Assembly: GCF_003790525.1 (NCBI RefSeq)
Contig: NZ_CP033635.1
From: Escherichia coli
GTDB lineage: Bacteria > Pseudomonadota > Gammaproteobacteria > Enterobacterales > Enterobacteriaceae
DNA: 64,000 nt
Direction: 5' to 3' (one strand)
Positions 3,001-64,000 of this stretch are shown here, in pieces; the stretch's first letter is position 1; each line of letters starts with the position of its first letter. The notes below the pieces were generated by a model. The model had not been told where the DNA came from. It worked only from the letters and a program-made list of their open reading frames with translations, and made no database searches. Made by a program: the position numbers and the translations under genes.

Positions 3001-3779
3001 CCCGCGAACAGAAACTGGCGATCAGTTCCCGCAGCGTGGCGAACATCATCCGTAAAACCATTCAGCGCGAGCAGAACCGTATCCGTATGCTCAACCAGGG
3101 CTTGCAGAACGTATCGTTCGGTCAGGTGAACAGCGTGCGCCTCAACGTGAACGTGCGTGAAACGCATGCCATGCTGCTGGATGTGCTCTCTGAACAGCAC
3201 GAGCAACATCAGGATCTGTTTAACAGCAACCGTCTGACCTTCTCGGAAGCGCTGGCGAAACTGTATCAACGTCTTAACCCGCAGATTGATATGGGGCAGC
3301 GCACGCCGCAGACCATCGGTGAAGAACTGCTGGATTACCGCAACTATCTGGAAATGGAAGTTGAGGTTAACCGTGGTTCCGATGGCTGGCTGCGCGCAGA
3401 ATCTGGCGCTCTGTCGACCGGTGAGGCGATTGGTACCGGTATGTCGATTCTGGTGATGGTGGTACAAAGCTGGGAAGATGAATCTCGCCGCCTGCGCGGT
3501 AAAGATATCTCTCCTTGCCGCCTGCTGTTCCTCGATGAAGCAGCGCGACTGGATGCTCGTTCCATCGCCACGCTGTTTGAATTGTGTGAGCGTTTGCAAA
3601 TGCAGCTCATCATCGCAGCGCCGGAAAATATCAGCCCGGAAAAAGGCACCACCTATAAACTGGTGCGTAAAGTCTTCCAGAATACCGAACACGTTCACGT
3701 AGTCGGTCTGCGTGGTTTTGCACCGCAACTCCCTGAAACGCTTCCAGGAAGTGACGAAGCGCCTTCCCAGGCGAGCTAA
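1..3779 (+). CDS. mukB: Chromosome partition protein MukB (SMC-like condensin), 5'-truncated by window edge; C-terminal about 1250 aa present
   Basis: Long coiled-coil-rich ORF (heptad-like E/Q/R/L-rich sequence) ending in a C-terminal ATPase head segment ([11 protein letters not shown] Walker-B-like); reading frame is open to the window start; matches MukB from memory. Confidence 0.93.
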
Positions 3780-3784
3780 GATTG

Positions 3785-3816
3785 AGGCGGCAGCGATGCC
3801 GCCTTTTCTATTTCTG
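3785..3816 (+). terminator. Intrinsic terminator downstream of mukB
   Basis: GC stem ggcggca...tgccgcc followed by a T-run (ttttctatttct) immediately after the mukB stop. Confidence 0.6.
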
Positions 3817-4039
3817 AAAACTCCGTTTCTGCACTAAAAAAATGCCACATTCTGGCGCGCTTTTCTTTAAACTTCTTTACATTAGGTTATGTAAAAACGT
3901 ATCGGCGTTTATATACTGAAGATAAGCCTGATGAGTAACAGGCTTGCTCGTCATACTTTCGTGAGTATTGGCGTTGTACAGGCAAGTCGTAAAATAACAG
4001 CCTGGCTATTCAGAGTATGATAAAAACAGGGGGCAAGGG

Positions 4040-5887
4040 ATGTTGCTTAATATGATGTGTGGTCGTCGGCTGTCGGCAATCAGTTTGTGCGTGGCCGTAA
4101 CATTCGCTCCACTGTTCAATGCGCAGGCCGATGAGCCTGAAGTAATCCCTGGCGACAGCCCGGTGGCTGTCAGTGAACAGGGCGAGGCACTGCCGCAGGC
4201 GCAAGCCACGGCAATTATGGCGGGGATCCAGCCATTGCCTGAAGGTGCGGCAGAAAAAGCCCGCACGCAAATCGAATCTCAATTACCCGCAGGTTATAAG
4301 CCGGTTTATCTTAACCAGCTTCAACTGTTGTATGCCGCACGCGATATGCAACCCATGTGGGAAAACCGTGATGCTGTTAAAGCCTTCCAGCAACAGCTGG
4401 CAGAGGTGGCGATTGCCGGTTTCCAGCCGCAGTTTAATAAATGGGTAGAGTTACTGACCGATCCTGGTGTTAACGGGATGGCACGCGACGTCGTGCTCTC
4501 TGATGCGATGATGGGCTATCTCCATTTCATTGCAAATATTCCGGTCAAAGGCACTCGCTGGCTATATAGCAGTAAACCTTATGCGCTTTCAACGCCGCCG
4601 CTTTCGGTGATTAACCAATGGCAGCTGGCGCTGGATAAAGGTCAATTGCCGACGTTTGTTGCAGGTCTGGCACCGCAGCATCCGCAATATGCAGCGATGC
4701 ATGAATCGTTACTGGCCTTACTCAGTGACACCAAACCGTGGCCCCAACTGACCGGCAAAGCAACGTTGCGCCCAGGGCAGTGGAGTAACGACGTACCGGC
4801 GTTGCGCGAAATATTGCAACGCACAGGCATGCTGGACGGGGGGCCGAAAATTACTCTACCTGGCGATGACACGCCAACTGACGCGGTAGTCAGCCCATCC
4901 GCTGTTACTGTTGAAACAGCAGAAACTAAGCCGATGGACAAGCAAACGACGTCTCGTAGTAAACCTGCGCCTGCCGTTCGTGCCGCCTACGATAATGAAC
5001 TGGTGGAAGCCGTTAAACGTTTTCAGGCATGGCAAGGATTGGGAGCAGATGGCGCTATTGGCCCGGCAACGCGTGACTGGTTAAACGTAACGCCCGCCCA
5101 GCGTGCTGGCGTGTTGGCACTCAACATCCAGCGATTGCGCTTGCTGCCAACAGAGCTTTCTACCGGGATCATGGTTAACATTCCGGCCTATTCGCTGGTC
5201 TACTATCAGAACGGCAATCAGGTGCTGGATTCGCGAGTCATTGTCGGTCGCCCCGATCGCAAAACGCCGATGATGAGCAGTGCACTTAACAACGTAGTGG
5301 TAAACCCGCCGTGGAACGTACCACCAACTCTGGCACGCAAAGATATTCTGCCGAAAGTGCGCAACGATCCGGGATATCTCGAAAGCCATGGCTATACGGT
5401 GATGCGCGGCTGGAACAGCAGAGAAGCGATTGACCCATGGCAGGTTGACTGGTCTACAATCACGGCCTCGAATTTACCGTTCCGCTTCCAGCAGGCTCCA
5501 GGCCCACGGAACTCGCTGGGGCGCTATAAATTCAATATGCCGAGTTCAGAGGCCATTTATTTGCATGACACGCCGAACCACAATCTGTTCAAACGTGATA
5601 CACGCGCATTGAGCTCAGGCTGTGTGCGAGTGAATAAAGCTTCCGATCTGGCGAATATGCTGTTGCAGGATGCAGGATGGAATGACAAACGTATTTCTGA
5701 TGCGCTGAAGCAGGGCGATACGCGTTACGTCAATATTCGGCAGTCGATTCCGGTGAATCTCTACTACCTGACGGCCTTTGTTGGTGCAGATGGTCGTACC
5801 CAGTATCGTACAGATATTTACAATTATGATCTGCCTGCGCGATCCAGCTCGCAAATCGTATCGAAAGCGGAACAATTAATCAGGTAA
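4040..5887 (+). CDS. ldtD: L,D-transpeptidase LdtD (YcbB), 615 aa
   Basis: N-terminal signal peptide; C-terminal YkuD-type L,D-transpeptidase domain with the catalytic cysteine in the SSGCVRV context; length and sequence match YcbB. Confidence 0.92.
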
Positions 5888-6067
5888 ATGAAGTAGTTCG
5901 GGGAAATCAGTTGTCGTAATAATTAGCATGATCGGGGGCGATTCTCTGCAGCCCCCGTCACTGCTGGGGTTGAGTCATCTTGACGTCAGCTTTACTGACG
6001 GTTAAGGTGCCTCTTGTGCGCCAGAAGTGCATATAAACGATAACATTGACCTGTAGACTTGATTATC

Positions 6068-60390: not shown

Positions 60391-61935
60391 ATGTGGGATG
60401 TCATTGATTTATCGCGCTGGCAGTTTGCACTGACCGCGCTGTATCACTTTTTATTTGTACCCCTTACCCTGGGGCTGATTTTTTTGCTGGCTATCATGGA
60501 AACCATTTACGTGGTCACCGGCAAAACAATCTACCGCGATATGACGCGCTTCTGGGGTAAGCTCTTCGGTATCAACTTTGCTCTTGGCGTGGCTACCGGC
60601 CTGACCATGGAGTTTCAGTTTGGTACTAACTGGTCATTCTATTCCAACTATGTGGGCGATATTTTTGGCGCACCGCTGGCAATGGAAGCATTAATGGCCT
60701 TCTTCCTCGAATCCACCTTTGTCGGGCTGTTCTTCTTCGGCTGGCAGCGGCTGAATAAATACCAGCACCTGCTGGTGACGTGGCTGGTGGCGTTCGGTTC
60801 AAATCTCTCTGCATTGTGGATATTGAATGCCAACGGTTGGATGCAATACCCGACCGGTGCGCATTTTGATATCGACACCCTGCGTATGGAGATGACCAGT
60901 TTCAGCGAGTTGGTCTTTAACCCGGTCAGCCAGGTGAAATTTGTGCACACCGTAATGGCGGGATACGTGACCGGGGCCATGTTTATTATGGCGATCAGCG
61001 CCTGGTATTTACTGCGCGGACGGGAGCGCGATGTCGCATTACGCTCGTTTGCCATCGGTTCCGTCTTCGGTACTCTGGCGATTATCGGTACGCTGCAACT
61101 CGGAGACAGTTCTGCGTATGAAGTCGCGCAAGTACAACCGGTAAAACTGGCGGCGATGGAAGGGGAGTGGCAAACAGAACCTGCACCTGCACCGTTCCAT
61201 GTGGTTGCCTGGCCGGAACAGGATCAAGAGCGTAACGCCTTTGCCATCAAAATTCCCGCGCTGCTAGGGATCCTCGCCACTCACTCATTAGATAAACCCG
61301 TGCCGGGTCTGAAGAATTTGATGGCTGAAACCTACCCACGCTTGCAACGCGGACGTATGGCCTGGCTGTTAATGCAGGAAATATCGCAAGGCAATCGTGA
61401 GCCGCATGTGTTGCAGGCATTCCGGGAGCTGGAAGGCGACCTGGGTTACGGCATGTTGCTCTCCCGCTATGCGCCGGATATGAATCATGTCACAGCCACA
61501 CAGTACCAGGCGGCGATGCGTGGCGCGATACCTCAGGTTGCGCCGGTATTCTGGAGTTTCCGCATCATGGTAGGCTGTGGTTCCCTGCTGTTACTGGTGA
61601 TGCTGATTGCGCTTGTCCAGACGCTGCGTGGCAAAATCGACCAGCATCGCTGGGTGCTGAAAATGGCGCTCTGGAGTTTGCCGCTTCCGTGGATTGCGAT
61701 TGAAGCCGGATGGTTTATGACCGAGTTTGGTCGTCAGCCGTGGGCGATACAGGACATCTTACCGACATACTCCGCGCACTCCGCCTTAACCACAGGACAA
61801 CTGGCTTTCTCACTGATCATGATCGTAGGGCTTTACACCCTGTTCTTAATCGCCGAAGTCTACCTGATGCAGAAATATGCCCGTCTGGGGCCGAGCGCGA
61901 TGCAGAGTGAACAACCGACGCAGCAACAGGGGTAA
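60391..61935 (+). CDS. appC: Cytochrome bd-II ubiquinol oxidase subunit I, 514 aa
   Basis: CydA-family with Q-loop; RBS aggag precedes the ATG at 60391 (ORF-track start is a GTG 6 nt upstream). Confidence 0.94.
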
Positions 61936-61946
61936 AGGAGAAAATC

Positions 61947-63083
61947 ATGTTTGATTATGAAACATTGCGCTTCATCTGGTGGCTGCTGATTGGCGTGATC
62001 CTGGTGGTCTTTATGATCTCCGACGGATTTGACATGGGGATTGGCTGTTTGCTGCCGCTGGTGGCGCGTAATGATGATGAACGCCGGATAGTGATAAACA
62101 GCGTTGGCGCGCACTGGGAAGGCAATCAGGTCTGGTTGATCCTCGCAGGTGGGGCATTATTTGCCGCCTGGCCCAGAGTGTATGCAGCGGCGTTTTCCGG
62201 CTTTTATGTGGCGATGATTCTGGTGCTGTGCTCGCTGTTCTTCCGCCCGCTGGCCTTTGATTATCGCGGAAAAATTGCCGATGCACGCTGGCGTAAAATG
62301 TGGGATGCCGGTCTGGTCATCGGCAGTCTGGTGCCGCCGGTAGTCTTCGGTATCGCCTTCGGCAACTTGTTGCTCGGCGTGCCGTTTGCCTTTACACCGC
62401 AATTACGCGTGGAGTATCTCGGCAGCTTCTGGCAACTGCTGACGCCATTCCCTTTATTGTGCGGATTGCTCAGCCTTGGGATGGTGATTTTGCAAGGTGG
62501 CGTCTGGTTACAACTGAAAACTGTTGGTGTGATTCATCTGCGTTCACAGCTGGCGACCAAACGCGCCGCACTACTGGTGATGCTGTGCTTTTTGCTGGCG
62601 GGTTACTGGCTGTGGGTCGGTATTGATGGCTTTGTACTGCTCGCCCAGGATGCTAACGGTCCTTCCAATCCGTTAATGAAACTGGTGGCAGTGCTACCTG
62701 GTGCCTGGATGAATAATTTCGTCGAATCGCCCGTTTTGTGGATCTTCCCGCTGCTGGGGTTCTTCTGCCCATTGCTGACGGTGATGGCGATTTATCGTGG
62801 TCGCCCGGGTTGGGGATTTTTGATGGCATCATTGATGCAATTTGGCGTGATTTTCACGGCAGGCATCACGCTGTTCCCCTTTGTCATGCCGTCAAGCGTG
62901 AGTCCAATCTCCAGCCTGACGTTGTGGGACAGCACTTCCAGCCAGTTGACGCTGAGTATTATGTTGGTAATCGTGCTGATATTTTTGCCCATTGTGTTGC
63001 TCTACACTCTCTGGAGCTACTACAAAATGTGGGGGCGCATCACGACAGAAACTCTCCGCCGTAACAAAAACGAGCTGTACTAA
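61947..63083 (+). CDS. appB: Cytochrome bd-II ubiquinol oxidase subunit II, 378 aa
   Basis: CydB-family membrane protein; matches AppB. Confidence 0.94.
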
Positions 63084-63095
63084 GGAGCAGGAACA

Positions 63096-63188
63096 ATGTG
63101 GTATTTACTTTGGTTCGTTGGCATTTTGTTGATGTGTTCGCTCTCCACCCTTGTGTTGGTATGGCTGGACCCGCGATTGAAAAGTTAA
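63096..63188 (+). CDS. appX: Cytochrome bd-II small subunit AppX (YccB), 30 aa single-helix membrane protein
   Basis: Not in the ORF track (too short); translation MWYLLWFVGILLMCSLSTLVLVWLDPRLKS is a CydX-like hydrophobic helix; RBS aggag lies upstream. Confidence 0.85.
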   Translation: MWYLLWFVGILLMCSLSTLVLVWLDPRLKS

Positions 63189-63267
63189 CGAACGTAAGTC
63201 TGATGCGGCGCATTAGCGTCGTATCAGGCAATCAATAATGTCGGATATGAAAAGCGGAAACATATCG

Positions 63268-64000
63268 ATGAAAGCGATCTTGATCCCATTTTTATCTCTT
63301 CTGATTCCGTTAACCCCGCAATCTGCATTCGCTAAGAGTGAGCCGGAGCTGAAGCTGGAAAGTGTGGTGATTGTCAGTCGTCATGGTGTGCGTGCCCCAA
63401 CCAAGGCCACGCAACTGATGCAGGATGTCACCCCAGACGCATGGCCAACATGGCCGGTAAAACTGGGGTGGCTGACACCGCGCGGTGGTGAGCTAATCGC
63501 TTATCTCGGACATTACCAACGCCAGCGTCTGGTGGCTGACGGATTGCTGGCGAAAAAGGGCTGCCCGCAGCCTGGTCAGGTCGCGATTATTGCTGATGTC
63601 GACGAGCGTACCCGTAAAACAGGCGAAGCCTTCGCCGCCGGGCTGGCACCTGACTGTGCAATAACCGTACATACCCAGGCAGATACGTCCAGTCCCGATC
63701 CGTTATTTAATCCTCTAAAAACTGGCGTTTGCCAACTGGATAACGCGAATGTGACTGACGCGATCCTCAGCAGGGCAGGAGGGTCAATTGCTGACTTTAC
63801 CGGGCATCGGCAAACGGCGTTTCGCGAACTGGAACAGGTACTTAATTTCCCACAATCAAACTTGTGCCTTAACCGTGAGAAACAGGACAAAAGTTGTTCA
63901 TTAACGCAGGCATTACCATCGGAACTCAAGGTGAGCGCCGACAATGTCTCATTAACCGGTGCGGTAAGCCTCGCATCAATGCTGACGGAGATATTTCTCC
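63268..64000 (+). CDS. appA: Periplasmic phytase / pH 2.5 acid phosphatase AppA, 3'-truncated by window edge
   Basis: Signal peptide MKAILIPFLSLLIPLTPQSAFA and histidine acid phosphatase motif RHGVRAP; frame open to window end; an in-frame ATG at 63247 is an alternative start. Confidence 0.92.
   Translation, partial: MKAILIPFLSLLIPLTPQSAFAKSEPELKLESVVIVSRHGVRAPTKATQLMQDVTPDAWPTWPVKLGWLTPRGGELIAYLGHYQRQRLVADGLLAKKGCPQPGQVAIIADVDERTRKTGEAFAAGLAPDCAITVHTQADTSSPDPLFNPLKTGVCQLDNANVTDAILSRAGGSIADFTGHRQTAFRELEQVLNFPQSNLCLNREKQDKSCSLTQALPSELKVSADNVSLTGAVSLASMLTEIFL

Follow-up and report, generated by a model that had tools for sequence, protein, structure and literature searches.

The small open reading frame at positions 63096-63188 (+) of the window, the whole 64,000-nucleotide stretch of Escherichia coli DNA that was analyzed, is with near certainty appX (cbdX, formerly yccB), the third gene of the appC-appB-appX operon for cytochrome bd-II (Table 1). 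The gene is already known: it is annotated in RefSeq, is covered by a curated HMM, and its product is resolved in two cryo-EM structures. Read directly from the window sequence, it runs from an ATG (63096-63098) to a TAA (63186-63188) and encodes MWYLLWFVGILLMCSLSTLVLVWLDPRLKS (30 aa). The start codon is preceded by a Shine-Dalgarno motif, AAGGAG, at a spacing of 8 nt (CAGGAACA); the motif is given for appX as UAAGGAG in PMC9841429. The frame opens 12 nt 3' of the appB stop codon and closes 79 nt 5' of appA. The original prediction of a 93-nt frame with a ribosome binding site, situated between appB and appA, was therefore correct in both respects.

Table 1. Features of the app locus discussed in the text, with positions counted from the first nucleotide of the window.
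Feature	Coordinates	Strand	Description
appC, cytochrome bd-II subunit I	60391..61935	+	NF011609 equivalog, 1200.6 bits (cut-off 1025); RefSeq
appB, cytochrome bd-II subunit II	61947..63083	+	PF02322, E = 2.6e-96; NF011602 equivalog, 830.8 bits (cut-off 681); RefSeq
Overlapping antisense ORF	63040..63231	-	63 aa
appX Shine-Dalgarno motif AAGGAG	63082..63087	+	Overlaps the appB stop codon TAA (63081-63083)
appX/cbdX (yccB)	63096..63188	+	30 codons plus stop; single-helix small subunit of cytochrome bd-II
Overlapping GTG-start ORF	63098..63238	+	46 aa; opens at the GTG within AUGUG
REP-like hairpin, appX-appA spacer	63198..63229	+	Perfect 14-bp stem, 4-nt loop
appA, acid phosphatase/phytase, 5' part	63268..64000	+	Full gene extends to 64578, past the window end; RefSeq

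A 701-nt query around appX gave a 100% match to E. coli SMS-3-5 (NC_010498.1). In that genome RefSeq places, exactly at 63096-63188, the CDS cbdX (WP_000270305.1), annotated as ‘cytochrome bd-II oxidase subunit CbdX’. The equivalent place in the K-12 MG1655 annotation is occupied by appX (b4592, ‘cytochrome bd-II accessory subunit AppX’). The query also matched 5419 of 5426 complete E. coli genomes, and in a second count the region was present in 5418 of the 5426. The gene lies directly 3' of the gene for subunit II in the bd-II (appC-appB) operon and, in the RefSeq annotation of SMS-3-5, the hya operon is located upstream of appC-appB-cbdX-appA.

The family models separate the product from its counterpart in cytochrome bd-I. 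AppX matches the NCBIfam CbdX equivalog NF011333 over model positions 1-30 of 30, at 80.8 bits (E = 4.2e-23) against a curated cut-off of 57 bits, and Pfam PF08173 (YbgT_YccB) at 45.4 bits (E = 8.5e-12; gathering score 26.2). On the equivalog for CydX of bd-I (TIGR02106) it reaches 18.9 bits, below the cut-off of 31.6. Because it passes the CbdX model and fails the CydX model, we conclude that AppX is the bd-II paralog of CydX and not CydX itself. One could still suppose that AppX acts as an additional CydX for bd-I, rather than as a dedicated bd-II subunit: both proteins belong to PF08173, they superpose in structures, and the N-terminal 24 residues of AppX align with CydX (6RKO_X, E = 0.009). 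We regard this as very improbable, given the contrast between the two equivalog scores, the placement of the gene in the app operon, the finding of the peptide bound to AppC, and the report that deletion of appX left the phenotypes of cydX point mutants unchanged and unmasked none (PMC6005532).

Considered as the bd-II paralog, AppX shares with CydX (YbgT; 6RKO_X) the Pfam family PF08173, the motif MWY.xW..G.LL.CS, a single helix, a gene position after subunit II and the site at which it binds subunit I. CydX is 37 aa long and has a longer acidic C-terminal tail, whereas AppX has 30 residues and ends in DPRLKS. In addition, Leu4, Leu5, Leu16 and Leu19 of AppX correspond to Phe, Ala, Phe and Ile in CydX, differences that have been suggested to explain the AppX-mediated dimer contacts in one bd-II structure (PMC8585947). 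A further parallel is CydS of the Geobacillus thermodenitrificans cytochrome bd, described as a single-helix accessory protein beside subunit I, like AppX, but slightly tilted and in contact with another set of helices (PMC8951039).

The AppX encoded in the window is identical at 30 of 30 residues to the chains named AppX in two cryo-EM structures of E. coli cytochrome bd-II, 7OSE (chain C) and 7OY2 (chain X, residues 1-30). The K-12 gene (b4592) encodes these same 30 residues with the same spacings and the same UAAGGAG Shine-Dalgarno sequence; the strain background differs, and the DNA departs from that of the window at only 3 of 93 positions, all synonymous, so that the protein is unchanged. 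In purified bd-II, AppX was detected by mass spectrometry (PMC8585947, the paper describing 7OSE). There it forms a single 30-residue helix, wholly buried in the membrane, that contacts transmembrane helices 1, 5 and 6 of AppC and superposes completely with CydX of bd-I (PMC8585947). In the amphipol-reconstituted dimer of bd-II, a leucine-zipper-like surface of AppX makes the main contact; whether this dimer exists in vivo was left open by the authors (PMC8585947). A review concurs on the structure of AppX and considers CydX, CydS and AppX to be mainly structural in role (PMC8951039). A preprint reports coverage of AppX by translation-initiation-site profiling, treating it as a known small protein (PMC11188072), and a paper on the conservation of CydX makes no statement specific to AppX (PMC4325964). 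We found no direct loss-of-function test of the need for AppX in bd-II in the literature.

That AppX is physically a subunit of bd-II has been shown by others for the K-12-derived enzyme and, from the identity of the peptide, we infer that the same would be true in the strain studied here. Tagged YccB/AppX was reportedly detected in work by VanOrsdel et al. in 2013 and Hemm et al. in 2008, and overexpressed AppX is said to complement a cydX mutant in part. Residues 1-24 carry zero charged side chains, and the tail contains D25, R27 and K29, a distribution that fits one transmembrane helix. The frame had been proposed to encode a single hydrophobic helix that is a CydX-like accessory subunit of cytochrome bd-II; the uncharged segment and the one membrane helix formed by the identical chain in 7OSE and 7OY2 agree with the first part, and the CbdX model, the RefSeq annotation and the identity to the AppX chains agree with the second. 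The further proposal that such a gene is invisible to length-thresholded ORF calling holds for naive length-threshold or longest-ORF procedures. It does not hold for current HMM pipelines, as cbdX is annotated in 59 of the 59 sampled E. coli records (those with a match across the whole query).

Relatives were sampled without presupposing the small ORF, by scanning one genome per species (GTDB representatives) with a pattern for the AppB tail only. The scan returned 13 loci, five from Escherichia (E. albertii, E. whittamii, Escherichia sp. E1V33 and two records titled E. coli) and eight from other Gammaproteobacteria (two Neptunomonas species, Ketobacter and five MAGs). In 13 of 13, a small ORF with the motif MWY[LF]xW, preceded by an SD-like motif, opens 11-65 nt 3' of the stop codon of subunit II. 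In the five Escherichia loci it is always 30 codons long and differs from that of the window only by L19V, D25E and S30G; Escherichia AppX orthologs reach 77-81 bits on NF011333. Outside Escherichia, five distinct peptides were scored; they have 32-47 codons and pass the CydX model TIGR02106 at 59-70 bits. Among the 13 loci, AppX-type genes occur only in Escherichia, the sole enterobacterial genus in this sample. Conservation of the frame in related genomes had been put forward as a check on the gene, and no loss was seen: seven Escherichia lineages keep the frame, as do the 13 loci the small ORF.

The eight non-Escherichia loci combine an AppB-like tail (W[ST]YYKMWGR) with a CydX-type small ORF immediately afterwards (32-47 aa, with acidic tails), so the YYKMWGR tail is not diagnostic of bd-II. 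In two of the MAG loci the small ORF is 47 aa long and has a C-terminal extension that contains Cys. The end of AppB also varies within Escherichia. Between 63041 and 63066, within the last 15 codons, two residues that are Met and Glu in K-12 are Ile and Lys in SMS-3-5, and the tails RHHENELY, RRHDHELY and RRHDSELY occur in other Escherichia. At the site of this Ile, Met, Leu or Val is found in K-12 and most of the relatives.

Across the seven Escherichia lineages, the variable sites of appX are distributed over codon positions 1/2/3 as 5/0/15, with a mean dN/dS of 0.068. Read in the appX frame, a fraction of 0.81 of the changed codons is synonymous, versus 0.23 and 0.01 in the shifted frames. 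Thus, we conclude that the appX frame is conserved and under purifying selection in Escherichia. These values also bear on the possibility that the 30-codon frame arose by chance in an appB-appA spacer that codes for no protein. Short ORFs are plentiful here (the 5 kb around appX contain 82 with 20 aa or more), and a length of 30 codons alone therefore proves no gene; other evidence is needed. That evidence consists of the family matches (E = 4e-23 for CbdX and 8.5e-12 for Pfam, with scores above curated cut-offs), the identical peptide in cryo-EM maps and mass spectrometry, the codon-position pattern with its low dN/dS, and the small ORF in all 13 independently anchored loci. The CbdX model score, the identity to solved chains and the substitution pattern lift appX above chance, and they refute the chance-ORF reading, to which we attach essentially zero probability.

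Two longer ORFs overlap appX, one beginning at the GTG of its AUGUG start and one on the opposite strand (Table 1), and the true product of the site could in principle be either of them. Both exceed appX in length, and at some genes AUGUG starts are reported to let translation begin in either of two frames (PMC9841429). The same study, however, lists appX among the AUGUG genes with a predicted ambiguity of ‘no’ (PMC9841429). In relatives the GTG frame ranges from 26 to 490 aa and lacks a conserved stop; its synonymous fraction is 0.01-0.23 and it matches no NCBIfam family. RefSeq has no annotation on the antisense ORF, and whether any frame across the strongly conserved appX codons is open would be a matter of accident. 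We therefore consider it exceedingly unlikely that either ORF, rather than appX, specifies the product.

Codon 19 of appX (63150-63152) encodes Val in all five of the non-K-12-like Escherichia lineages sampled, and the D25E and S30G positions vary too. AppX homologs in bd-II operons are said to conserve the Leu positions (PMC8585947). Leu19 is named in the AppX-AppX dimer contact and is called conserved in AppX homologs in that paper, yet it is Val in five Escherichia lineages.

The locus suggests a simple scheme for AppX. The gene would be translated from an AAGGAG/ATG site of its own; because the Shine-Dalgarno motif of this site overlaps the appB stop codon, ribosomes that finish appB could reinitiate or couple, judging from this geometry. 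The 30-residue product is predicted to form one hydrophobic transmembrane helix that would pack against AppC helices 1, 5 and 6, at the position that CydX holds in bd-I. There it probably stabilizes the four-helix bundle carrying hemes b595 and d. By analogy with CydX, AppX may be required for the assembly or activity of bd-II. It is conceivable, but in our view unlikely, that AppX has a bd-II-specific role beyond the CydX-like scaffold, namely leucine-zipper-like dimerization of bd-II in the membrane, with L19V, D25E and S30G, by which other Escherichia lineages differ from E. coli proper, tuning that dimerization. Position 19 enters this scheme because it is among the residues named in the dimer contact (PMC8585947).

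One E. coli genome carries a naturally disrupted copy of the gene. In strain EL361 (swine, NZ_CP193497.1), an IS3-family element (locus-record 3107-4512) lies within appX, inserted after the equivalent of 63147 (codon 17/18; 63145-63147) with a 3-bp target duplication; appC, appB and appA are intact. What remains is a fusion frame of 39 aa, and cbdX is missing from the annotation. Thus, at least one strain is viable without an intact appX. The search of E. coli genomes also returned five matches to the app region on plasmids, and matches at up to four places in some genomes. From this we conclude that E. coli occasionally carries all or part of the app region in extra copies or on a plasmid.

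The spacer between appX and appA contains a REP-like hairpin (Table 1) with a predicted dG of -30 kcal/mol (z = -4.9; 0 of 200 shuffled sequences were equally stable). Each arm fits the REP half-site GCCKGATGCGRCG with no more than one substitution. A search for further copies of the full hairpin recovered only 63198-63229 itself in the window; with this single full copy, only the looser half-site consensus ties the hairpin to the REP family. It has no U-tract and is therefore not an intrinsic terminator. The hairpin could act as a stabilizer of the mRNA 3' end or as an element for differential expression between appCBX and appA. K-12 differs from the window at 5 of 79 positions of this spacer; four differences (63197, 63199, 63218 and 63222) fall within the stem or beside it. 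A scan for promoters and terminators identified no promoter-like or terminator-like site near appX, the hairpin included, and the sequence thus gives no sign that appX is transcribed separately.

The surroundings of appA differ between strains. In SMS-3-5 the gene is 1311 nt long, versus 1299 nt in K-12. It is followed directly, beyond the 3' end of the window, by cspH, with which it overlaps by 13 nt (locus-record 5767-5979). In K-12, appA is followed by etk (K-12 locus record, 6031 onward). On comparison of the two loci, the etk-containing cluster appears to be absent from the 3' side of appA in SMS-3-5. Farther 3' in SMS-3-5, torS is annotated as a frameshifted pseudogene.

In summary, appX serves as a positive control: a gene of 30 codons that was recognized from sequence alone and that a default 60-aa ORF filter drops. 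A longest-ORF rule picks the wrong frame here, in the form of either of the two longer ORFs that overlap appX. The window containing appX is thus usable for calibrating the detection of small ORFs.
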